Part shown: in pieces, positions 2,865 through 39,234 of the stretch
Position numbering within the stretch: the stretch's first letter is position 1
Layout: each line of letters starts with the position of its first letter
Assembly (NCBI GenBank): GCA_964412525.1
Contig: CAYPOX010000001.1
Coordinates: 11,356-75,355, forward strand
Origin: an uncultured Caulobacterales bacterium
GTDB taxonomy: Bacteria; Pseudomonadota; Alphaproteobacteria; Caulobacterales; CAYPOX01
Length of the DNA stretch: 64,000 nucleotides
Direction: 5' to 3'
Made by a program: the position numbers and the translations under genes
Notes under the pieces: model-generated
What the model was told of the DNA's origin: nothing
The model's input: only the letters and a program-made list of their open reading frames with translations
The model's database searches: none

Positions 2865-3596
2865 CTAAGCGGCTGTCGCGTCGGCGATATCGTCTGACGC
2901 GCCGTCGGACGTGGCCTCAACCGGCTCATCGAGCTTGTACCCGCGACCATATACGGTCTCAATATACTGGGCGCCCGCGGTGGCATTGGCGATCTTTTTG
3001 CGAAGCTTGCAGATGTAAACGTCAATTACCTTGTCGAAGGGTTGCGAATCCATCATGCCGTAAACGGCTTCATACACGGAATTCTTCGACACGACCTTGC
3101 CCGCTTGCAACGCCAAATGGGTGAAAATGGCGTGCTCGCGGTGAGAGAGTTTCAGGCGCCGGCCATCCACCTCCGGATCGCGACCGTCGAAATAGACCGT
3201 GAGGCGACCGATCCGCAGACTGGCCGTCACATGGCCGTGGCCGCGGCGGCGAATGGCCTGGATCCGGGCGACCGCTTCGCCAGGATTGATCGGTTTGACC
3301 AAAGCGTCGTCAGCCCCGGAACCCAGAAGCCGGATCACGTCGTCCGAAGACCGAAGATCCAAAAGAGCCAAAATCGGACCACGGAACTCCTCGCCGCGCA
3401 GTCGCTCCACGAATCGCGATTGATCCGCCACGCCGCCGACCAGCACCGCGCATTCTCCACCCGCTTCGCTCTGGCGCGACAACACCGCATCAATGTCCGC
3501 CTCGGACAGCGGCTCGCAACGAACCTTGCTCCGGGCGAGGGCCTTAGAAAGCGCGTCAAAGACGCTGTCTCGCGGTTCGGCCAATAAAACACGCAT
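2865..3596 (-). CDS. OmpR-family, CtrA/FtcR-like winged-helix regulator with a degenerate receiver domain
   Basis: The C-terminus KVIDVYICKLRKKI...IETVYGRGYKL resembles the CtrA DNA-binding domain as I recall it. The N-terminus MRVLLAEPRDS and the strand CAVLVGGVADQ lack the usual acidic pair and phospho-Asp. The gene is divergent from flgI. Confidence 0.75.
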   Translation of the reverse strand: MRVLLAEPRDSVFDALSKALARSKVRCEPLSEADIDAVLSRQSEAGGECAVLVGGVADQSRFVERLRGEEFRGPILALLDLRSSDDVIRLLGSGADDALVKPINPGEAVARIQAIRRRGHGHVTASLRIGRLTVYFDGRDPEVDGRRLKLSHREHAIFTHLALQAGKVVSKNSVYEAVYGMMDSQPFDKVIDVYICKLRKKIANATAGAQYIETVYGRGYKLDEPVEATSDGASDDIADATAA

Positions 3597-3615: not shown

Positions 3616-3678
3616 GATTTTACGACAATACGACTGAACGCGAAAACGGTTGCCGATCCGTTACGATTTTACGACAAT
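3616..3678. promoter_or_regulatory. Two perfect 14-bp direct repeats, GATTTTACGACAAT, in the regulator/flgI divergent intergenic region
   Basis: The copies are at 3616-3629 and 3665-3678, spaced 49 bp start to start. They are AT-rich within GC-rich DNA. Confidence 0.6.
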
Positions 3679-3697: not shown

Positions 3698-3744
3698 GCG
3701 TAGACACCTCTGTAAAGTCACCTTAACCTCGAATGCGTAGACAC
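3698..3744. promoter_or_regulatory. Two perfect 10-bp direct repeats, GCGTAGACAC, just upstream of flgI
   Basis: The copies are at 3698-3707 and 3735-3744, spaced 37 bp. The second ends 25 nt before the flgI ATG. Confidence 0.5.
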
Positions 3745-3769: not shown

Positions 3770-4888
3770 ATGGCGCGACACCTATTGGTCCTCCTCGCAT
3801 TCGCGGCCTTCTGCTTCGGGTCGCAAGCGCAGGCGCAGGCGCGCATCAAGGATTTGGTCTCGGTCGAAGGCGTCCGCGGCAACATCCTTGTGGGCTACGG
3901 TCTCGTTGTGGGCTTGAATGGCACGGGCGACCGTTTGAACAACGTCCAGTTCACCGAGGAAAGCATTCAATCCGCGTTGGATCGACTCGGCGTCACCTAT
4001 CGCGACAACGTCCAGCTCCGGACCCGGAACGCGGCCGCGGTCATGGTCACCGCCACGCTGCCGCCTTTCGCGCGCTCCGGCGAAACCATCGACGTCAATG
4101 TCGGCGCGCTTGGCGACGCGCGCGATCTTCGTGGCGGGCAACTTTTGGCGACGTCGTTGGTCGGGGCCAATCAACAGACCTACGCCGTCGCCCAGGGCAG
4201 CCTCGTCACGGGCGCTTTCGCGGCCCAGGGCCAAGGAGCCAGCGTCACCCAGGGCGTACCGACCGCCGGCCGAATCCCGAACGGCGCCATCATAGAACGT
4301 GAGGTGGATTTCGAGTTGGACGAACTGCCGATCATTCAGTTGAGCCTGCGGAACGCTGATTTCACAACCGCCGTTCGGATTGAGGACGCCATCAATGCGC
4401 GGATGGGGCGCGGGGTGGCCGTGGCGATTGATCCGGGAACCGTCGAAACCGTCGTGCCGGACGATTATCGCCGCCGTGGCGGCGCTGTCCGGTTTCTGGC
4501 TCAAGTCGAGAACATCGAAGTTCTGCCGGACGGCGTGGCGCGCGTGGTGATTGACGAGCGCACGGGCACGATCGTGATCGGCGAGGCCGTGCGCGTGAGC
4601 CGCGTGGCGGTGGCGCAGGGCAACATTACAATCCAGGTGACGGAGACGCCGCAAGTTTCTCAACCGGGCCCCTTCGCTCAGCAGGGTCAGACGGTTGTCG
4701 TTCCGCGCACGGACGTGCAAGTCGATGAGGGCGAGGACGGACGGTTCCAAATCATCGGCGACGCGGTCACGCTTCAGGAATTGATCAACGGCTTGAACGC
4801 CTTGGGCGTCGGGCCGCGGGACATCATTTCGATCCTTGACGCCGTGAAAAGTTCCGGCGCGCTGCACGCGGAGCTCGTGATTCAATGA
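3770..4888 (+). CDS. flgI: Flagellar P-ring protein FlgI
   Basis: A signal peptide (ARHLLVLLAFAAFCFGSQAQA) is followed by RIKDLVSVEGVRGNILVGYGLVVGLNGTGD. GAGGG lies 5 nt before the ATG at 3770. Confidence 0.95.
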   Translation: MARHLLVLLAFAAFCFGSQAQAQARIKDLVSVEGVRGNILVGYGLVVGLNGTGDRLNNVQFTEESIQSALDRLGVTYRDNVQLRTRNAAAVMVTATLPPFARSGETIDVNVGALGDARDLRGGQLLATSLVGANQQTYAVAQGSLVTGAFAAQGQGASVTQGVPTAGRIPNGAIIEREVDFELDELPIIQLSLRNADFTTAVRIEDAINARMGRGVAVAIDPGTVETVVPDDYRRRGGAVRFLAQVENIEVLPDGVARVVIDERTGTIVIGEAVRVSRVAVAQGNITIQVTETPQVSQPGPFAQQGQTVVVPRTDVQVDEGEDGRFQIIGDAVTLQELINGLNALGVGPRDIISILDAVKSSGALHAELVIQ

Positions 4889-5733: not shown

Positions 5734-7293
5734 ATGGGCCAGTGGACAGGCGATTACGTCGTCGACATCGATTATTCAGCGAGCATGTATGAGTGGGTCA
5801 CGCCGCTTCGCATGCATACCCAGTTTCGGCTGGCATACTCCCAGAACGCGCCGGACCCGTTTCGGCCTGGACTTCAAATCGCGGACCTCGCATGCGGGAT
5901 GGGCGTCCACGCATGCATGCTCGCCGCGTGCTATCCGAACGCGCGCGTCTTCGCGTGCGACATCAACCCGCTCCATGTGGCCAACGCGATCGAACTCGCA
6001 CGGGACGCGGAGCTGACCAATATTGATATTGAGCTCGCAAGTTTCGCGGAGATCGCCAATAGAAAAGAAGATTTCCAGAGGCGTTTTGATTATACTTTTT
6101 TGCACGGAGTCTACTCATGGGTCAAAGATAGCATTCGAGAAGATCTTCACAATTTTATAGATTTTGCAATAGCGCCTGGAGGTCTTGTCTATCTTAATTA
6201 TGAATGCTTGCCTGGCGCCGCGGAAGTTGGCGTTTTGAACCGACTATACTCAGAGATCGTGGCCCAGTCGCGTATCGACGCTGGGGCTGATTTGGGCCAA
6301 GACAACGACTTGCTCGATCAATTGGTGGAAACTGGGGCCGGTTACTTTAACAGACTGAAAACCTCAGGCTCGTTCAACGGTTTTAAGAAGGCGACGCCAA
6401 ACTACAGGCTTCATGCGTTTGCGTCGGGCGAAGGGCTGCCGCTTTACTCCTCAAGCGTTATCCGACGGTTCGCGGCGAACGGACTGGCCTATATCGGCGG
6501 CGCAGAGCCCTTGCATGTTCTTGGAGAGTCTTACATCCCGCCGGCGCTCTCTGGCTTGTTGAAGCGGATCCGCGATCGCGCGGCGCGTGAAACCTTCTAC
6601 GACGCTATGACCAATTATGGGGGACGCGGCGACATTTTTGCATTGGGTTCGCGGCCGCTGAACAAAAACCGGATTCGTACGTGGTTCGGCCAACAACGAT
6701 TTATGGCGCGTATGGATACGATCCCCGACCCGCTCACGATCCGGTCGCCATTTGGTGCGCTGAACGTTCAAAACGAACTGTCCGTCACCCTCCATCGAAT
6801 TCTCCGAAACGGTCCGGCGCGGGTCCATGATTTGGCCCAAGCGCTCAACCTGTCCACCAACGATCCGAAACTTCTCAATGCGGTTCGCGTCGGCTATGCG
6901 TCTGGAATCATTGAGGCGGCGGCGGACGAGAAACATGTCGACGCCGCGACGGAGCCGGTCCGTCGGTTCAACCGCGTGCTGGCGGATCGTGTGGCGAACG
7001 GCCATCCGGTGTCCAGTCTCGCAAGCCCTGTGACTGCGACGGCGTCGCCGATGACGCTCGGCGACGTGACAGCGATCGTTTTGGACAGCAGTCACACGCC
7101 ATTGTCGGACAAAACGGTGACGCACGGCTTGCGCCAATTGATTAAGCGGGGCGGCCGAGATCCCGACCAGGTCTTTGACGGCTTTTCTGAAATGGTGCGC
7201 AACAGCGTGGAACGCTATGTGACCGACGGCCATGCGACGCGCTTGACGCGCCTCGGAGTCCTCGCGCCAAATTCGATTTCAACGAACGGATGA
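5734..7293 (+). CDS. Class I SAM-dependent methyltransferase with a long C-terminal (regulatory-type) domain
   Basis: It has the SAM motif I IADLACGMGVHACMLAACYPNARVFACDINP, then FDYTFLHGVYSWV and GGLVYLNYE. The remaining 300-odd residues are uncharacterised. It is the last gene before flagellin. Confidence 0.7.
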   Translation: MGQWTGDYVVDIDYSASMYEWVTPLRMHTQFRLAYSQNAPDPFRPGLQIADLACGMGVHACMLAACYPNARVFACDINPLHVANAIELARDAELTNIDIELASFAEIANRKEDFQRRFDYTFLHGVYSWVKDSIREDLHNFIDFAIAPGGLVYLNYECLPGAAEVGVLNRLYSEIVAQSRIDAGADLGQDNDLLDQLVETGAGYFNRLKTSGSFNGFKKATPNYRLHAFASGEGLPLYSSSVIRRFAANGLAYIGGAEPLHVLGESYIPPALSGLLKRIRDRAARETFYDAMTNYGGRGDIFALGSRPLNKNRIRTWFGQQRFMARMDTIPDPLTIRSPFGALNVQNELSVTLHRILRNGPARVHDLAQALNLSTNDPKLLNAVRVGYASGIIEAAADEKHVDAATEPVRRFNRVLADRVANGHPVSSLASPVTATASPMTLGDVTAIVLDSSHTPLSDKTVTHGLRQLIKRGGRDPDQVFDGFSEMVRNSVERYVTDGHATRLTRLGVLAPNSISTNG

Positions 7294-7299
7294 AAGAAT

Positions 7300-7311
7300 C
7301 GCTTTTACGCG
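7300..7311 (+). promoter_or_regulatory. 12-mer CGCTTTTACGCG upstream of the flagellin gene; shared with the fliI/flgB intergenic region
   Basis: The identical 12-mer occurs as its reverse complement at 11828-11839. The TTTTACG core also appears in the 14-bp repeats at 3616 and 3665. Confidence 0.45.
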
Positions 7312-7422
7312 GTTTTAAGTCGACCATGAGACCTTCCGCCAGCGTTTTCCAGGGTAAGCTTGGGGACGCGCGGCGTCAGAAGGCGCTTGTTCAACTCACC
7401 CAGAATCAAGGGAGCACGACAC

Positions 7423-8982: not shown

Positions 8983-8998
8983 GATCGCTGAACAGGAT

Positions 8999-9031
8999 CG
9001 GGGCCGGCGAATGCCGGCCCCGATTTCTTTT
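8999..9031 (+). terminator. Rho-independent terminator after flagellin
   Basis: The stem is CGGGGCCGGC / GCCGGCCCCG (perfect 10 bp) with loop GAAT, followed by ATTTCTTTT. Confidence 0.85.
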
Positions 9032-9081
9032 GAACTCGGCGCAACCAATCGTTAAAATCTTTTCTTTAAGGATGGGTCATT

Positions 9082-11757: not shown

Positions 11758-11827
11758 GTGCGCCCCGTCCCCTGTTGTCCGCGTCACCAAGCCCGACGGC
11801 GACCGCCGAAGCAACCCTTTCGCCCCG

Positions 11828-11839
11828 CGCGTAAAAGCG
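11828..11839 (-). promoter_or_regulatory. Second copy of the 12-mer CGCTTTTACGCG, read on the minus strand, in the fliI/flgB divergent region
   Basis: It is a perfect match to 7300-7311. It lies 71 nt upstream of the fliI start and 60 nt upstream of the flgB start. Confidence 0.45.
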
Positions 11840-11898
11840 TGTTTAAACCATGGCGTGCCATCACGCTGATCAAACACGGGTAAGGGTCGATCGCAAGC

Positions 11899-14110: not shown

Positions 14111-16186
14111 ATGTTTCGTTCGATCGATGTCCGTGAAGGCCTGAAGCACCGCGACGTCCTTTTTGCGGTCGCCATTTTGGCGATTCTCACGCTGCTGTTC
14201 GTGCCGATCGCGCCCTGGCTTCTGGACTTCGGCCTATCGATTTCGCTCGCCTTCTCCGCATTGATTCTCATGACGGCGCTGTGGGTGAACCGGCCGCTCG
14301 ATCTGTCGTCTTTCCCGACCATCCTCCTTGTGGCGACAGTTTTGCGTTTGGCGTTGAATGTCGCGTCCACCCGATTGATCCTGACGAACGGGCATGAGGG
14401 GTCAGCCGCGGCCGGCCGGGTCATCGAAGGCTTCGCCGAATTCCTCATGGGCGGCAATTTCGTCATCGGCATCGTCGTCTTCGCGATTTTGATCGTCGTC
14501 AATTTCGTCGTGATCACCCGCGGCGCAAGCCGGATCGCGGAAGTCGGCGCGCGTTTCACCTTGGACGCCATGCCCGGCAAGCAAATGGCGATCGATGCGG
14601 ATTTGTCGTCGGGCCTTATCAATGAGGAGCAAGCCCGTACGCGCCGGAAAGATCTGGAAGAGCAAAGCGCGTTTTACGGCGCGATGGACGGCGCCTCAAA
14701 GTTCGTGCGCGGGGACGCGATCGCGGGCCTGATCATCACCTTCATCAATGTCATCGGCGGTATGGTGATCGGCGTGGTCCAACAGGATCTCACCATCGGA
14801 GAGGCCGCGAACAATTACACCCTTCTGACCGTGGGCGACGGCCTCGCCACCCAGGTTCCGGCATTGATCGTTTCGCTCGCAGCCGGCTTGCTCGTCACCC
14901 GCGGCGAAAATGAAGGCGGCGCGGAACGCGCGGTCTTCGCCCAACTCGGAAACTACCCGAAAGCGCTGATACTCGTCGGCTTTATGCTTGCCGGCCTTGG
15001 CCTCCTTCCCGGTCTCCCGATTCTCGTTCTTCTCCCCTTGGCTGCTTTGGCTTTTGCGGCCGGTTACTTCCTCCCGCGTATGCGCGCGCGCGAGGCGGAG
15101 GAAGCGAAGGTCTCGGCAGCCGTGGCGAAGGAGCGCGACGCGCAGGCGCCGGCGGAGGAGAAAGTCGAAGACACCTTGCGGGTGGAGGACGTCAAGCTGG
15201 AAGTCGGCTCGCATCTGGTCACGTTGATCTCGGACCCGTCTCGCGGTCTGTCGCCAAAAGTGCGATCCCTGCGCAAGCGATTTGCGCGCGAATACGGTTT
15301 CCTGCTCCCGCCGGTGCGCATCCGTGACAACGTATATCTCAAGAACGACGAGTATGTGGTCTCGATCCAAGACGTTGAAATGGCGCGTGGGCGGGTGAAG
15401 CCCGGCATGATGCTTGTGATCAATCCCCAGGGCGGCACGGTCGACATGCCCGGCGAACAGACGAAGGAGCCCACCTTCGGCCTTCCCGCCTGTTGGATCG
15501 ACGCCAATTTGACGGAAGAAGCAGAGGCCAAATCCTATACGGTGGTGGATCCGGAAAGCGTGGTGACGACGCATTTGGCGGAGATCATCAAGGACAATCT
15601 GCCGACGCTCCTCACCTATTCCGCCCTGCAGCGGCTGCTTCAAAATCTGGATCCGGAATATTCCAAGCTTCTGGGCGATGTGGTGCCGAGCCAGATCAGC
15701 CATGTTGGGTTGCAACGCGTGCTTCAGGCGCTGTTGGGCGAGCGGATCTCCATTCGCAATCTGCCTGCGATCCTGGAAGCGGTGTCCGAGGCGGCCGGCT
15801 GGACCCGCAACGCCAGCCTGATCGCCGAACATGTGCGCTCACGCTTGGGGCCGCAAATCGTCGATCGCTTCAAAGGCCCTGACGGCTTCATTCCGGTGGT
15901 GTCGCTGACGCCGAAATGGGAGCAGGCCTTTTTGGAGAATATCGAAACGCGCGATCACAACCGGCATTTCGCCATGCCTCCAAGCCTGGTGAACGAGTTC
16001 GTTCAGACCGCGCGCCGAAAGCTCCAGCAATTCGCGGCCACCGGCACGACGCCGGCGGTCCTGGTCACGCCGGACGCGCGGCCCTTCGTCCGGTCCTTGC
16101 TTGAACGGGTCAGCCCGCAAACGCCCGTGATTTCCCACAACGAGCTTCACTCGAAAGTCCAGATTAAGTCCCTCGGTCAGATTTGA
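14111..16186 (+). CDS. flhA: Flagellar export apparatus protein FlhA
   Basis: At 691 aa it has FPTILLVATVLRLALNVASTRLIL, GASRIAEVGARFTLDAMPGKQMAIDADL and FVRGDAIAG. Confidence 0.97.
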   Translation: MFRSIDVREGLKHRDVLFAVAILAILTLLFVPIAPWLLDFGLSISLAFSALILMTALWVNRPLDLSSFPTILLVATVLRLALNVASTRLILTNGHEGSAAAGRVIEGFAEFLMGGNFVIGIVVFAILIVVNFVVITRGASRIAEVGARFTLDAMPGKQMAIDADLSSGLINEEQARTRRKDLEEQSAFYGAMDGASKFVRGDAIAGLIITFINVIGGMVIGVVQQDLTIGEAANNYTLLTVGDGLATQVPALIVSLAAGLLVTRGENEGGAERAVFAQLGNYPKALILVGFMLAGLGLLPGLPILVLLPLAALAFAAGYFLPRMRAREAEEAKVSAAVAKERDAQAPAEEKVEDTLRVEDVKLEVGSHLVTLISDPSRGLSPKVRSLRKRFAREYGFLLPPVRIRDNVYLKNDEYVVSIQDVEMARGRVKPGMMLVINPQGGTVDMPGEQTKEPTFGLPACWIDANLTEEAEAKSYTVVDPESVVTTHLAEIIKDNLPTLLTYSALQRLLQNLDPEYSKLLGDVVPSQISHVGLQRVLQALLGERISIRNLPAILEAVSEAAGWTRNASLIAEHVRSRLGPQIVDRFKGPDGFIPVVSLTPKWEQAFLENIETRDHNRHFAMPPSLVNEFVQTARRKLQQFAATGTTPAVLVTPDARPFVRSLLERVSPQTPVISHNELHSKVQIKSLGQI

Positions 16187-21336: not shown

Positions 21337-21410
21337 GCGTTTCTCCCTCCCGTCGCAAGCGACATGTCGCTCGCTTTGTCTCGCCGTCGCGGCTCAAGGT
21401 CCGCGCCGTT

Positions 21411-21498
21411 GACCGAGGTTTAAAATTTAACGTCTAAAGTTCCAACCGTCGACCGAGGCGTCGTCTAACGCGCACGCCTCTTCGCAAACGTTAAAATT
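21411..21498. promoter_or_regulatory. Repeat set in the fliL/fliF divergent region: GACCGAGG x2 and TTAAAATT x2
   Basis: GACCGAGG is at 21411-21418 and 21451-21458. TTAAAATT is at 21420-21427 and 21491-21498. A TTAAC half-site is at 21427-21431. Confidence 0.4.
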
Positions 21499-24537: not shown

Positions 24538-25368
24538 ATGATCCGCCGCGCCATTCCAATTTGCGCCGCCCTTGTCGCCGCTGCGTTTTGGCTGCTGCCT
24601 GACGTCGCTTTTGCGCAATCCCTCTCGCTCGATTTGGGCGACGAGGCGACAGGGACGTTCTCGGCGCGTTTGATCCAGATCCTGGCGTTGATGACCGTCA
24701 TCAGCGTCGCGCCAGGGATCTTGTTGATGGGCACGTCCTTTCTTCGGATCGTGGTCGTGCTGTCCATGCTGCGCGTGGCGCTCGGTCTTCAGCAAACCCC
24801 GCCCAATATGGTCATTATCGGAATGTCGCTGTTCTTGACGGCATATGTGATGGGGCCGACCTTCGAGCGCGCGTGGGTCGAGGGCGTCTCGCCTTTGATC
24901 AACGAAACGGTGACGGAGGAACAGGCCGCGGCCCGCACGATCCGTCCGTTTAAAGACTTCATGTTAAGCCAGGTGCGTGAACAAGATTTGCGCCTCTTCC
25001 AAAATCTGTCGGACGAGCCGTCTCCGAATGCGGTCACGCCAGCGGCGCCCGTGCCCGGGATCGGCCCGCCCACGGCGACCGCGCTCTTGGGAGACGAAGC
25101 GGATGCGGATCGGATCGATCCTCCGCTTCAAGTCCTGGTGCCCGCCTTCATCATCTCGGAGCTTCGGCGCGCCTTCGAGATCGGTTTTTTGTTGTTTCTT
25201 CCGTTTCTCATCATCGATATGACCATCGCCTCCTTGCTGATGTCGATGGGCATGATGATGCTGCCGCCCGTCATCATTTCACTCCCGTTTAAGGTCATCT
25301 TTTTCGTTTTGATCGAAGGATGGTATCTGGTGTCGGGAAGTCTCGTGCGTTCGTTCGGTACCGTTTGA
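24538..25368 (+). CDS. fliP: Flagellar export apparatus protein FliP
   Basis: It has a signal peptide, then LMTVISVAPGILLMGTSFLRIVVVLSMLRVALGLQQTPPN and FLLFLPFLIIDM. A Pro-rich insert of about 30 aa is present. Confidence 0.93.
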   Translation: MIRRAIPICAALVAAAFWLLPDVAFAQSLSLDLGDEATGTFSARLIQILALMTVISVAPGILLMGTSFLRIVVVLSMLRVALGLQQTPPNMVIIGMSLFLTAYVMGPTFERAWVEGVSPLINETVTEEQAAARTIRPFKDFMLSQVREQDLRLFQNLSDEPSPNAVTPAAPVPGIGPPTATALLGDEADADRIDPPLQVLVPAFIISELRRAFEIGFLLFLPFLIIDMTIASLLMSMGMMMLPPVIISLPFKVIFFVLIEGWYLVSGSLVRSFGTV

Positions 25369-26457: not shown

Positions 26458-28161
26458 TTACGCGCCGCGGCGGCCTAGGCGCACCAATTCATCCCGAAGG
26501 CGCGGAAACACGGCGTCCCAATCGCCCAGTCGGTCGGGATGCAAAACGGTATTCTTCGTGCCGTAGAATGGGATGGAATCGGCTTTACCGAGCATTGTCC
26601 AAATCTTAAGTGCGCTGACCCAAATTGTCGGCGTCCCGACGGCCGCGCTCAATGCGCCGGCGGCGGTGTTGGCGCTCGCGACCAAGTCTAGCGACGCGCA
26701 CAGCGCCGCATTGTTATCGATATCGTTCTTCAGATCGATCTCGCTCGAAAAATCGACGATATGAAATCCGCGTTCGCGCGCGGCCACCAATTCCGCCCGG
26801 CAATCATCATATTGAAGACTGACAAATGTCGCGTCGATGTCTTTGAGAGCGTCCGCCCATGTCCCAATGGACGCATAGTGGAAGTTTCGTTTGACGCTTC
26901 GCATGCCGCTTCGCCAACAGATCCCCACATAGGGTCCGGGCCCAACCTCTTTCAGCCGCGCGGACCAACGCTCCTTTTGGGCGGCGTCGACGACCAAACG
27001 GCGGGGTTCCGCGGGGAATGCGTCAACGCTCGGGCGCAATAAGGGTAGAAACGCACCAATGAAGGCGTGGACGTCTGGGGGCGGCAGCGTTCCATCCGGG
27101 TCGTCCGGCGACAACAGAACCACCGTGCCGCGTTTCGCGACGTGACGTGGACGTACGGCGACGTCTGGAAAGGTTCGCGCAAAAAGTGACGCCAGCCGAG
27201 GTTCGCAAATCAACACCAAGGACTTACATTTCGTTTTCAGGTCTTCGATAATCGGATAAAATAATATTTCGTCTCCAAGACCTTGCTCGGTGTAAACGTA
27301 AAGCGTCTTGTCGGAGAGATCTGTTTCGACCGTCCACTCGTCGCCAGCATCGACCAATTCCATGCCAAAAGAATAGCTGCGATTCAAACGAGAATGCAGA
27401 TATGCGGGCCACCCGCGTTCCAAATCGCCAAATCCAAGAAAACATAGGCCGGCGGTGAAGCAGACGTTATGCATGTCGTCTATGGACATCCCGCCAAGTT
27501 TCATGGCCTCGACGGCGTGAGTCGACGCGTCCTTAAATTGCGCAAGCCGAAACAGGCCATCCGCATACAGGTAACGAAAAGGACCGGCGGTCGGGTGCTC
27601 CGCCATCGCCTCTTGGGATGCGGCGAGACCCGTTTCGAGATCGCCAAGATAGTAATTGATGACGATATTCATGCGCTTCGCCACCACATTCTGCGGATGG
27701 CTTTCACGCACTTCACGAATGAGGTCTCGGGCAGCCGCATATTGATGGGCTTCGACCAGCGCGGTCGCGTAGTTGAGGCGATGTTCCGCCTTGTCCGGGT
27801 CAAGTGCGATCGATTGACGAAATGGGCGATGCATTTCGTCGTATTTTTTACATTCCTGAAAAAAGGTTCCGTACAAACCAAAGGCGTACGCCTTGTCCGG
27901 CGCCAGTTCGATCAATCTCTCAAAGCTGGTCCGGGCTTCTTTCGCCCGGCCTGTGTAAAAAAATGAGTTCGCAAGCAGCGCCACAAGGTCCGCATCGTGG
28001 GCGTACTTCACCAAATATGTTGTGAGGAACTTGCTGACGTCTTCAAGGCGGTTGTCCTCATAAGCGTCGACGGCCTCCGCGTAAGCCCTATGGTACTCCT
28101 TGTCAGGATGCGGATTGACGCCGGAAAAATATCTCTCTTTGAGGAGTTCTGCGGCGCGCAT
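26458..28161 (-). CDS. TPR-repeat protein with a C-terminal GT9-like (GT-B) glycosyltransferase domain
   Basis: The N-terminal half holds TPR-type helices. The C-terminal half has YTEQGLGDEILFYPIIEDLKTKCKSLVLICEPRLASLFARTFPDV and ...LVASANTAAGALSAAVGTPT, which resemble heptosyltransferase-family motifs. The gene is visibly lower in GC than its flanks. Confidence 0.6.
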   Translation of the reverse strand: MRAAELLKERYFSGVNPHPDKEYHRAYAEAVDAYEDNRLEDVSKFLTTYLVKYAHDADLVALLANSFFYTGRAKEARTSFERLIELAPDKAYAFGLYGTFFQECKKYDEMHRPFRQSIALDPDKAEHRLNYATALVEAHQYAAARDLIREVRESHPQNVVAKRMNIVINYYLGDLETGLAASQEAMAEHPTAGPFRYLYADGLFRLAQFKDASTHAVEAMKLGGMSIDDMHNVCFTAGLCFLGFGDLERGWPAYLHSRLNRSYSFGMELVDAGDEWTVETDLSDKTLYVYTEQGLGDEILFYPIIEDLKTKCKSLVLICEPRLASLFARTFPDVAVRPRHVAKRGTVVLLSPDDPDGTLPPPDVHAFIGAFLPLLRPSVDAFPAEPRRLVVDAAQKERWSARLKEVGPGPYVGICWRSGMRSVKRNFHYASIGTWADALKDIDATFVSLQYDDCRAELVAARERGFHIVDFSSEIDLKNDIDNNAALCASLDLVASANTAAGALSAAVGTPTIWVSALKIWTMLGKADSIPFYGTKNTVLHPDRLGDWDAVFPRLRDELVRLGRRGA

Positions 28162-28285
28162 GGCGGAATTGACTCATTGCGGGGACAGGCTTGGCTAACT
28201 ATCGCTCGGGTGTTCAAGCAGGTTTAACGACTCGTAAGGATCCAAGGCAGGCGCGCCGCTTCGGTTCGCCCCAGAGGAGCCCGAG

Positions 28286-38093: not shown

Positions 38094-39234
38094 ATGGGTA
38101 GCTGGAGATGAGTTGGAACGTTCGCGCCAGGAAGGCGCGATCTCGATCGTTCAGCTCGGGGCGCCAAATGTCGAACAACAGCACGATGCGCGGCTCGTCG
38201 CTCATATTCTCCGCCTCGTGCTCAATGCTGTCGTCGAACACCGTCAATTCGCCTCGACGCCAGACATGGCGCTGATTTCCGACGCGCAGGACGCAGGCCC
38301 CGGGAACGATAAGCGGCAAATGGCAAATCAACCGCGTATTGAGCATGCCGTGATGCGGATCGATTCGCGTTTTCGGTCGCAGCATCGAGAACAGAACAGA
38401 CGGGTTTTTACCCGGCACGGTGCAGAGCGGCACGTCCTCCAGCGCCGCCATGGCGTGCGGGCAGTGTTTGGCGACGGCCTCGTTCACCGTCCCGCTCTTG
38501 ATGAGATAGGCCGCGCTCCAATCGGTATTGTCCTGAAGATGGGATTCGCGCGTCTTTGGTCCGCTCTGGACGTGGAGATATGCCTGAAACCCGTCCTCCA
38601 GCGCCATCACCGCGCGCGCCTCTTCGGCAATGGCGTCGGTCTGCGCCTCCAAGGCCGAGGCCCAGGTGAACTCGGATCGGTCGTAAAATTGCCTTTGGGG
38701 TAGGCCTGGCCAAAAAAATTGCTCCGGCTCCTGGGCGTAGATCTTGCGGCGGCCGAAGAGAATGTCGAGCGCTTCGCTGGCGGCGCCGGGCCCGTCCGGC
38801 GCGACCTCGAAGCCTTCCTCTCCCAAAGCCTTTCGAAGAAACGCTTCATACCCAGCCATCAACTCGCGTCCAAGGCGATGCGCGCGTTCCAAATGGGCTT
38901 GTATGTGCGCCGGGCGACGGTCCGGCGGCGGCGCCACAGTGATTGCGGCGTTGAAGAAGGACGCCGCTTCCGCCTTGCGGCCGAGCTTGAGCGCCGCATC
39001 GCCGCGCATCACCAGTGCGAGGAAATTGCGCGGTTGGATCTCAAGGACTCGTTCGAGCTCCGCCACCTCACCCACATGGTCGCCCGTGTCGCGGCACGCG
39101 AAAGCAAGCCCCATGCGGATCGCGGGATCGTTCGGACGCTCCGTCGCTTCCTCAGACAACAGTTCAAACGCCGCGCGAGGGTTTCCGGCCTGCAGCGCTT
39201 CAAAGCCCTCCCGGGCCCGTTGGCTCATTTCCAT
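38092..39234 (-). CDS. TPR-containing aspartyl/asparaginyl beta-hydroxylase-family protein
   Basis: It has N-terminal TPR helices. The C-terminus IDPHHGMLNTRLICHLPLIVP...VFDDSIEHEAEN fits the 2-oxoglutarate/Fe(II) Asp/Asn hydroxylase fold. Confidence 0.75.
   Translation of the reverse strand: MEMSQRAREGFEALQAGNPRAAFELLSEEATERPNDPAIRMGLAFACRDTGDHVGEVAELERVLEIQPRNFLALVMRGDAALKLGRKAEAASFFNAAITVAPPPDRRPAHIQAHLERAHRLGRELMAGYEAFLRKALGEEGFEVAPDGPGAASEALDILFGRRKIYAQEPEQFFWPGLPQRQFYDRSEFTWASALEAQTDAIAEEARAVMALEDGFQAYLHVQSGPKTRESHLQDNTDWSAAYLIKSGTVNEAVAKHCPHAMAALEDVPLCTVPGKNPSVLFSMLRPKTRIDPHHGMLNTRLICHLPLIVPGACVLRVGNQRHVWRRGELTVFDDSIEHEAENMSDEPRIVLLFDIWRPELNDRDRAFLARTFQLISSYP

Follow-up and report, generated by a model that had tools for sequence, protein, structure and literature searches.

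The repeated 12-mer of an alphaproteobacterial flagellar gene cluster in all likelihood marks the degenerate half-sites of two CtrA-type boxes

In Caulobacter crescentus, class II flagellar promoters carry a CtrA box, TTAA-N7-TTAAC, which overlaps the −35 region and is followed by a −10 element of the GCTAnn type; the flagellin genes depend on σ54 and FlbD, and CtrA is essential and controlled by the cell cycle. In Rhodobacter (Cereibacter) sphaeroides, single or paired CtrA sites near −35 activate the divergent flgB/fliI and fliL/fliF promoters (Rivera-Osorio et al. 2018, PMC6180460). The present study concerns an 18-bp promoter element, and the regulator that may read it, in an alphaproteobacterial flagellar gene cluster that fills positions 1–28161 of a 64-kb stretch of DNA from an uncultured Caulobacterales bacterium (contig CAYPOX010000001.1; the whole stretch, 64,000 nucleotides, is called the window below). 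A reading of the window made from its letters alone (the sequence-only reading) had drawn attention to an identical 12-mer, CGCTTTTACGCG, upstream of the flagellin gene and between fliI and flgB. Both copies are, in all likelihood, the weak promoter-distal half-sites of two CtrA-type activator boxes; such a box is a known kind of element, of which the boxes described here are new instances.

Two further groups of systems are relevant to the regulator of this cluster. Rem, FtcR and LafR of the Rhizobiales are orphan OmpR-family master regulators of flagellar genes that have no cognate kinase and act on direct repeats, spaced by about one helical turn, to activate class II promoters (bioRxiv 10.1101/2021.06.24.449765; PMC9456535; PMC8639532). 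As published maps show, the fla2-type clusters of Rhodobacterales (Marinovum algicola pMaD5 type) have two genes at fixed positions, one for a response regulator (labelled cheY) and one of σ70 type; the papers cited here characterise neither the regulator nor any cis element (PMC12363192, PMC12843797).

The sequence-only reading had taken the 12-mer as part of a locus-wide cis element and had proposed motif discovery. A shared element does exist, and both 12-mers lie inside instances of it, but the element is an 18-bp bipartite box of CtrA type. It was recovered by an unseeded Gibbs sampler run on 19 flagellin upstream regions from clusters that contain a homologue of the window's regulator, the comparison loci being drawn from plasmids, metagenomes and assemblies. 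The sampler returned one motif, located −107 to −139 from the ATG, which reads T-T-(T/A)-n-A-C, C-C-(C/G)-G-n-(C/T), T-T-A-A-(A/T)-C; A5, T13, T14, A15 and A16 are invariant (19/19 sites), and C6 is present in 16 of the 19. In the cluster, the general form of the box is TT(T/A)nAC, six mostly G/C bases and TTAA(A/T/C)C. The commonest proximal half among boxes of the family, TTAACC, is the Caulobacter half-site TTAACC(AT).

The flagellin (fliC) box of the window, TTTTACGCGGTTTTAAGT, was part of the de novo motif; it occupies positions 7303–7320 of the plus strand, reads TTTA-N7-TTAA, starts 120 nt before the flagellin ATG and scores 16.5 bits with a matrix built without it. The divergent fliI/flgB region holds a single, quasi-symmetric box (11829–11848, TAAA-N7-TTAA), which scores 14.8 bits in its plus reading (GTAAAAGCGTGTTTAAAC, starting 68 nt before the flgB ATG) and 13.9 bits in its minus reading toward fliI (TTAAACACGCTTTTACGC, starting 89 nt before the fliI ATG). 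The flgI box, TGTAAAGTCACCTTAACC (3711–3728, plus strand, GTAA-N7-TTAA), starts 60 nt before the flgI ATG at 3771 and has CGTAGA, which resembles a −10 element, 7 nt downstream; the box in the fliL/fliF divergent region, GTTGACCGAGGTTTAAAA (21408–21425, plus strand, TTGA-N7-TTAA), has TCTAAA at the same distance. TTTTAC is absent from both the flgI and the fliL/fliF box. All four boxes differ from TTAA-N7-TTAA by one mismatch each, always in the distal half. There are also a candidate internal box, TTTCACTCCCGTTTAAGG (25277–25294, plus strand), which lies in the 3′ end of fliP, 119 nt before the fliG ATG, and scores 15 bits, and a box-like site at 28212–28229 (TTCA-N7-TTAA, 10.7 bits) in the divergent region between putA and the gene for a tetratricopeptide repeat (TPR) protein (26458–28161) at the cluster edge; neither showed conservation in the relatives examined.

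The box is enriched, is conserved in position and is restricted to flagellar promoters. With a matrix made from other organisms' flagellin sites only, the window's own site being left out, and a cut-off of 13 bits, the 64-kb window contains five matches, compared with 0.89 ± 1.03 in shuffled sequences; all five (flgI, fliC, fliI/flgB, fliL/fliF and upstream of fliG) lie within the flagellar cluster. Matches are present in 4/5 promoter-bearing intergenic regions, and three were reached in 0 of 2,000 shuffles. The pattern TTAA-N7-TTAA, with at most one mismatch, occurs seven times in the window, compared with 1.69 expected, a count reached in 0 of 100 shuffles; the matches start at 3712 (flgI), 7304 (fliC), 11832 (fliI/flgB), 21409 (fliL/fliF), 25278 (before fliG), 28213 (cluster edge) and 42760 (elsewhere). 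In the six that lie in or beside the cluster, the perfect TTAA is nearest the plus-strand gene and the mismatch falls in the distal half. The 19 loci of the family (447 kb) hold 109 box matches (2.44 per 10 kb), compared with 2 in shuffled copies; control loci, in which a true ctrA lies beside polar flagellar genes, hold 0.40 matches per 10 kb, compared with 0.21 in shuffles. In a metagenome scan that used the family alignment, most of the loci found were those of true CtrA; L084–L087 were its sole family members, and the remainder served as controls.

The identity of the box follows from the variation of its distal hexamer, which across orthologous promoters is TTTTAC, TTAAAC, TTTAAC, TTTGAC, TTTCAC, GTTAAC or CGAAAC. 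Sites in which it is GTTAAC or TTTAAC have the form of the classical CtrA box, TTAA-N7-TTAA; TTTTAC is thus the TTTA variant of the distal half-site. A separate element, TTTTAC-N4-TTTAA with 10-bp spacing and distinct from CtrA, was considered and dropped when re-indexing on the GTTAAC and TTTAAC variants gave TTAA-N7-TTAA. Three of the features by which a CtrA box is recognised were found: two TTAA-like half-sites about one helical turn apart, a frequency above chance at the target promoters, and positional conservation in orthologous promoters of other species. Judged from its bases, the 18-bp element is a TTAA-N7-TTAA CtrA-type box with a degenerate distal half.

The place of the 12-mer within this element can be stated exactly. 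It occurs twice in the window, at 7300–7311 on the plus strand and 11828–11839 on the minus strand, as had been reported, and the distances given for it hold: the flagellin ATG (7423) lies 112 nt downstream of the first copy, and the second, within the 141-bp fliI/flgB intergenic region, is 71 nt from the fliI ATG (11757, minus strand) and 60 nt from the flgB ATG (11899). In both boxes the 12-mer is made up of the distal hexamer with three bases on either side, those immediately 5′ and those with which the GC-rich spacer begins. The first copy comprises a CGC flank, TTTTAC (core TTTA, 7304–7307) and the GCG of the fliC-box spacer; the second, which reads CGCGTAAAAGCG on the plus strand, comprises a CGC flank, the flipped hexamer GTAAAA (core TAAA, 11832–11835) and the spacer GCG. 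The half-site core thus fills positions 5–8 of the 12-mer in both copies, and the plus-strand readings are CGC-TTTTAC-GCG-G-TTTTAAG at fliC and CGC-GTAAAA-GCG-TG-TTTAAAC at flgB. The exact match in reverse complement follows from two facts: the distal hexamer has opposite orientations at the two promoters, and its flanks, CGC and GCG, complement each other. The TTAA of the proximal halves (in TTTTAAG at 7313–7319 and TTTAAAC at 11842–11848) had not been flagged by the sequence-only reading. Across boxes the GC-rich spacer is conserved and the CGC flank is not.

Comparison of the cluster with related loci was made at some phylogenetic distance: a near relative was not found in the GTDB species set, the best FliI matches (58–59% identity) come from Iodidimonas and Azospirillum, with which synteny is shared, and the two closest regulator homologues (67% and 64% identical) stand on contigs of 3 kb and 1.4 kb that cover the flgI/regulator region only. 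TTTTAC is rare in the syntenic loci of Azospirillum, Indioceanicola and Iodidimonas (3–6 copies per 21–41 kb). In Azospirillum and Indioceanicola it stands about 125–135 nt before the flagellin ATG in the orientation of the gene, and it is also present in the fliI/flgB region of A. oryzae, Indioceanicola and Iodidimonas; in Indioceanicola, 4/4 copies in 40.7 kb fall in flagellar promoter regions. The fliI/flgB regions of four genera carry the box, which is near-palindromic in Azospirillum (TTAAAACCGGATTTAAAT, 25–27 bits) and reads CTTAAACACGATTTAAAG in Iodidimonas; Indioceanicola has two, TTAAACACCGCTTTTACC being one of them. Together with about 15 bp of flank (GCnCTGAC-TTAAACAC...), the fliI/flgB box is recognisable in three genera (L082, 8597–8667; window, 11790–11860; L001, 9890–9965). 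At flgI, the window, L166, L167, L168, L172 and L084 share a conserved box at about −60 to −71, and one can be recognised in L173. Upstream of flhA, Azospirillum and Indioceanicola have boxes whose proximal half is TTTTACC and which come with a good −10 element; one quasi-symmetric fliI/flgB box may therefore serve both divergent genes.

Many boxes of the family are followed after 7 nt (7–8 nt in related promoters) by CCTAGC, GCTAGG, TCTATG or GCTAAC, sequences that fit the alphaproteobacterial GCTAnn type of −10 element and put its A 13 nt after TTAA. Given this fixed distance, the box would span about −38 to −24 and take the place of the −35 element; it would thus overlap the −35 region, as in CtrA-activated class II flagellar promoters, and a winged-helix dimer of the CtrA family would bind it and recruit RNA polymerase. 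For the fliC promoter this arrangement predicts the −11 A at 7331 and a transcription start near 7341. A σ70-type −35/−10 promoter was looked for in the fliC, flgI and fliI/flgB regions, and none was found there. The transcription starts, the identity of the binder and activation itself are what we infer from these arrangements.

The flgB2p-fliI2p and fliL2p-fliF2p promoters of R. sphaeroides are among the closest described systems, with the same divergent gene pairs and short intergenic regions (PMC6180460). Experiment has placed a bipartite box of TTAA type near −35 and an A at −11 there, as is predicted here; in both systems the two genes have one shared or two sites, and the spacing is atypical or variable. 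The binder in R. sphaeroides is phosphorylatable CtrA, as determined by chromatin immunoprecipitation, and the cluster is without a regulator of its own, whereas the cluster described here encodes an aspartate-less paralogue; moreover, the boxes of the window, which are known from sequence, have a far more degenerate distal half and a GC-rich spacer and also occur at the flagellin gene. Unlike in Caulobacter, too, the box precedes the flagellin gene, and the cluster has a second, CtrA-like protein of its own.

This regulator (243 amino acids, 2865–3596, minus strand), which is encoded divergently from flgI, combines a receiver that lacks the aspartate with a winged helix of OmpR/PhoB type. Among NCBIfam families it scores best with CtrA (NF045991), yet its 151.9 bits fall short of the cut-off of 350. 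In an alignment with four true CtrA proteins, EPR stands where they have EDD and VLVG-G where they have ILLDLN, with glycine at the position of the phospho-acceptor aspartate (D51) and a one-residue gap beside it; a Pfam scan of the protein returned no Response_reg domain, and Trans_reg_C at 4e-19. Its recognition helix, IDVYICKLRKK, corresponds to IDVFICKLRKK of CtrA, and 10 of the 11 residues are invariant across the paralogues and true CtrA. Compared with a CtrA orthologue, the protein therefore retains the recognition helix and lacks the acidic pocket, the acceptor aspartate and the equivalog score. A search of PDB sequences with the regulator yielded generic OmpR/PhoB relatives only (BasR, PrrA) and no CtrA-DNA complex.

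The position of the paralogue gene, divergent from flgI and beside flgL-flgK-flgE, is conserved in L166–L174, and the family is found on plasmids and chromids of Azospirillum, Sulfitobacter, Marinovum, Salipiger and others. Homologues 42–53% identical to the window's protein are encoded in plasmid-borne flagellar clusters of Sulfitobacter, Marinovum, Salipiger, Alloyangia and Roseivivax, and the cluster type of the regulator corresponds to the fla2-type clusters of Rhodobacterales (Marinovum algicola pMaD5 type; PMC12363192, PMC12843797); unlike in the published fla2-type maps, the visible part of the window's cluster contains no sigma gene, and the best FliI identity is 59%. The protein is also reminiscent of Rem, FtcR and LafR, in that it is of OmpR/PhoB type, has a receiver without a functional acceptor aspartate and is encoded, with no kinase, in the cluster beside flgE-flgK-flgL. 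The Rem motif consists of CAAG direct repeats, however, and that reported for FtcR is TGTGGGCA, whereas the boxes here are of TTAA type and the DNA-binding domain is CtrA-like; Rem CAAG repeats and the FtcR motif TGTGGGCA have one match each in the window, at 52 kb, outside the flagellar cluster and at chance frequency.

In a first search, the paralogue family was represented in more than 100 clusters at 44–67% identity, always in this type of flagellar cluster and apparently uncharacterised. Rhodospirillum centenum has two reported CtrA homologues (RC1_0209 and RC1_1752), one of which may be such a paralogue. An adjoining contig end (L164; CAZMSO010000013.1, 1–11110), outside the window, carries a second paralogous set of flgI, flgJ, fliC, flaF, flbT, flhB, fliR and flhA. 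This set encodes a further CtrA paralogue without the aspartate (P0097; 47% identity to that of the window), and the box in its flagellin promoter reads TTTGACATGCGCTTAAAA; the metagenome-assembled genome (MAG) thus holds two regulator-plus-box systems about 12 kb apart.

One alternative to an element of any kind is that the repeat of the 12-mer is pure coincidence with nothing functional behind it. The sequence-only reading had held a second copy by chance to be improbable, an argument that fails, since nothing had singled out this 12-mer beforehand: identical 12-mers form 1,673 pairs in the window, with either strand counted, and a 12-mer common to two intergenic regions of the flagellar cluster arises in about 20% of composition-preserving shuffles (1,364 nt), or in about 5% when only the five promoter-bearing regions are shuffled (757 nt). 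A between-region match in about 5–20% of shuffles makes the exact repeat borderline when taken alone, so that further evidence is needed; exact 12-mer repeats are common in a window of 64 kb, and the case is made by comparative evidence and not by the length of the repeat. That both copies lie in boxes conserved in position across several genera, and score highly with a matrix trained on other organisms, contradicts coincidence for the core, and as a full explanation it is most improbable; it probably applies only to the extra flanking bases, and we take the exact identity of the 12-mers to be partly coincidental. It is only a little less improbable that the 12-mer, or an 11-bp TTTTACG consensus that includes the repeats near flgI, is a discrete site for a dedicated factor, apart from the TTAA box. 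The identity over 12 bp is exact, TTTTACG also forms the middle of both exact 14-bp repeats between the regulator gene and flgI, and TTTTAC followed by G or C recurs in relatives; yet other hexamers fill the position there, the CGC flank varies, the closest relatives have no flgI repeats, TTTTAC is missing from the fliL/fliF and flgI boxes, and only 16 of the 83 TTTTAC copies in family loci lie in boxes, the others being at no consistent position. Of nearly the same low probability is the proposal that TTTTAC is the −35 element for an alternative sigma factor encoded in this cluster type. The Azospirillum and Sulfitobacter clusters do contain genes of the σ70 family, which in L081 and L083 either adjoin the regulator gene or lie elsewhere in the cluster, the distal-half variants TTTGAC and TTGAAC resemble TTGACA, and flagellin promoters have a −10 region (GTCAT or GCCAC) different from the CTAG type. 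Against this, the invariant TTAA comes 6–7 bp after the hexamer, too close for a −10 element and too conserved for a spacer; some 20 nt separate the hexamer from the −10-like element, more than a −35/−10 pair allows, and the hexamer can flip (GTAAAA at flgB) with its register kept; and no homologue of those sigma genes was found in the window or the adjoining 11 kb of contig.

What separates the remaining possibilities is the binder. The sequence-only reading had named a CtrA-like regulator or CtrA, and we agree; of the two, the paralogue encoded beside flgI (2865–3596) is the most likely. It would read the boxes without phosphorylation, and housekeeping CtrA could bind the same boxes. Since the phospho-acceptor aspartate is lost, the paralogue would act unphosphorylated and be controlled through its own expression; in most relatives its gene has a promoter of TTGAC type and no box, which fits an activator at the top of the hierarchy. 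A rather less probable reading leads to the same cis element and differs only in the binder: the boxes would be bound and activated only by the host's phosphorylatable CtrA, as at the class II promoters of Caulobacter and the fla2 promoters of R. sphaeroides, while the paralogue competes, represses or acts elsewhere. The box indeed departs from the CtrA consensus by a single mismatch, flagellar promoters are widely controlled by CtrA (PMC6180460, PMC12363192), and the recognition helix common to both proteins means that DNA specificity cannot tell them apart. The host-CtrA reading accounts poorly for the retention of the paralogue in nearly every cluster of the type and its movement with the cluster on plasmids, for the TTGAC-type promoter of its gene, as expected at the top of a hierarchy, and for an enrichment of the box of about 50-fold in paralogue-bearing loci as opposed to about 2-fold in polar-flagellar loci with true ctrA. 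A stronger form of the paralogue reading, to which we give something short of an even chance, is that the paralogue is a dedicated, phosphorylation-independent master activator of this cluster type, which reads CtrA-type boxes with a relaxed distal half at every promoter, including that of flagellin; with the same reserve, the cluster types so governed would be the fla2 type of Rhodobacterales, the Azospirillum chromid clusters and the MAG studied here.

Several points weigh against the interpretation of the boxes as paralogue-bound activator sites. The fliI/flgB module of Indioceanicola is inverted relative to the genes when compared with the window and Iodidimonas, which makes it uncertain which gene the single box of the window serves; taken with a second box that Indioceanicola has for fliI, the inversion indicates that the arrangement of sites in the divergent region is evolutionarily fluid. 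The GC-rich spacer accounts for the GCG flank of the 12-mer but not for CGC, and the register of the distal half is loose, the spacing from TTAA to TTAA being N7 in some boxes of relatives and N8 in others. CTA is at the expected place in only 24% of family matches, the −10-like elements after the fliC, flgB and fliI boxes of the window are poor (GAGACC, TGCCAT and GAAAGG), and the predicted promoter coordinates are derived from spacing alone. Finally, no evidence presented here distinguishes the paralogue from true CtrA as the binder.

Were the master-activator reading correct, the regulator and its boxes would form a self-contained cassette, such that the cluster could be expressed after horizontal transfer without the CckA-ChpT-CtrA phosphorelay of the host; the paralogue might also cross-talk with sites of host CtrA, the cell-cycle regulator. 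If the paralogue is the binder, this would explain how plasmid-borne flagellar systems are switched on in new hosts. A widespread CtrA paralogue without a phosphorylation site travels with a mobile flagellar cluster among Azospirillaceae, roseobacters and other alphaproteobacteria, and what began as an odd repeated word becomes a testable map of five predicted activator-dependent promoters at base resolution.

The heptamer TTTTACG, which the sequence-only reading had made the core of its element, occurs seven times in the window (2.9 expected; seven reached in 2 of 100 shuffles), at 3618, 3667, 7303, 11830 (minus strand), 14672, 38682 (minus strand) and 63517 (minus strand). The further copy that had been noticed within flhA is the one at 14672; those at 38682 and 63517 had been missed. 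The copies at 3618 and 3667 are the centres of an exact 14-bp direct repeat, GATTTTACGACAAT, at 3616–3629 and 3665–3678 (plus strand), whose copies lie 49 bp apart between the regulator gene and flgI, inside an imperfect repeat of about 24 bp. These repeats had been joined with the two 12-mers in a four-site consensus, (G/C)(A/C)TTTTACG(A/C)(C/G), which does not survive: they share the TTTTACG core only, have no TTAA half, score below 8 bits against the box model and have no counterpart in the two closest relatives (regulators 67% and 64% identical), and they are thus lineage-specific and are not boxes. On the strand of the regulator they read ATTGTCGTAAAATC and contain TAAAAT, 19 and 68 nt before the regulator ATG; another factor may bind them, or they may act as −10-like elements. 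Readings of the repeats as half-site arrays or as tandem −10 (TAAAAT) promoters of the regulator were set aside, there being no convincing −35 element, no conservation and an inconsistent orientation in relatives.

The gene order of the cluster, with coordinates verified by Pfam and NCBIfam, is flgK′, flgL, the OmpR-family regulator gene (minus strand), flgI, flgJ, flgN, a methyltransferase gene, fliC, flaF and flbT; then fliI (minus strand), flgB, flgC, fliE, fliQ, flhA, fliR and flhB; then motE, a DUF6468 gene, fliM and fliL (minus strand); and lastly fliF, fliH, fliN, fliP, fliG and the TPR protein gene. A GC-rich hairpin followed by a T run (8997–9024) directly after the flagellin stop codon is a likely terminator, and flaF is preceded by an ordinary promoter, TTGAAC-17-TAAAAT (9030–9058); given a terminator followed by a σ70-type promoter, flaF-flbT seem to be transcribed independently of the box system.

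A separate element, GCGTCAGAA(A)GGCGC (7373–7386 in the window), stands 41–47 nt before the start codon of about 20 flagellin genes of this cluster type (L001–L004, L082, L085, L086, L164 and L167–L172 among them); 14 match CAGAA[G/T][G/A] and 6 have the variant CAGAAAG. In the predicted 5′ untranslated region it folds into a short GC stem capped by a CAGAAG loop, and an Rfam search gave no match in the window or for this flagellin 5′ element. With flaF and flbT just downstream, it is a candidate site of translational control by FlbT or FlaF. A 519-amino-acid S-adenosylmethionine (SAM)-dependent methyltransferase with a regulatory domain is encoded between flgN and fliC (5734–7293), and the 567-amino-acid TPR protein (26458–28161) closes the cluster; most related clusters are without these genes at the corresponding positions, and both products may be flagellin-modifying enzymes.

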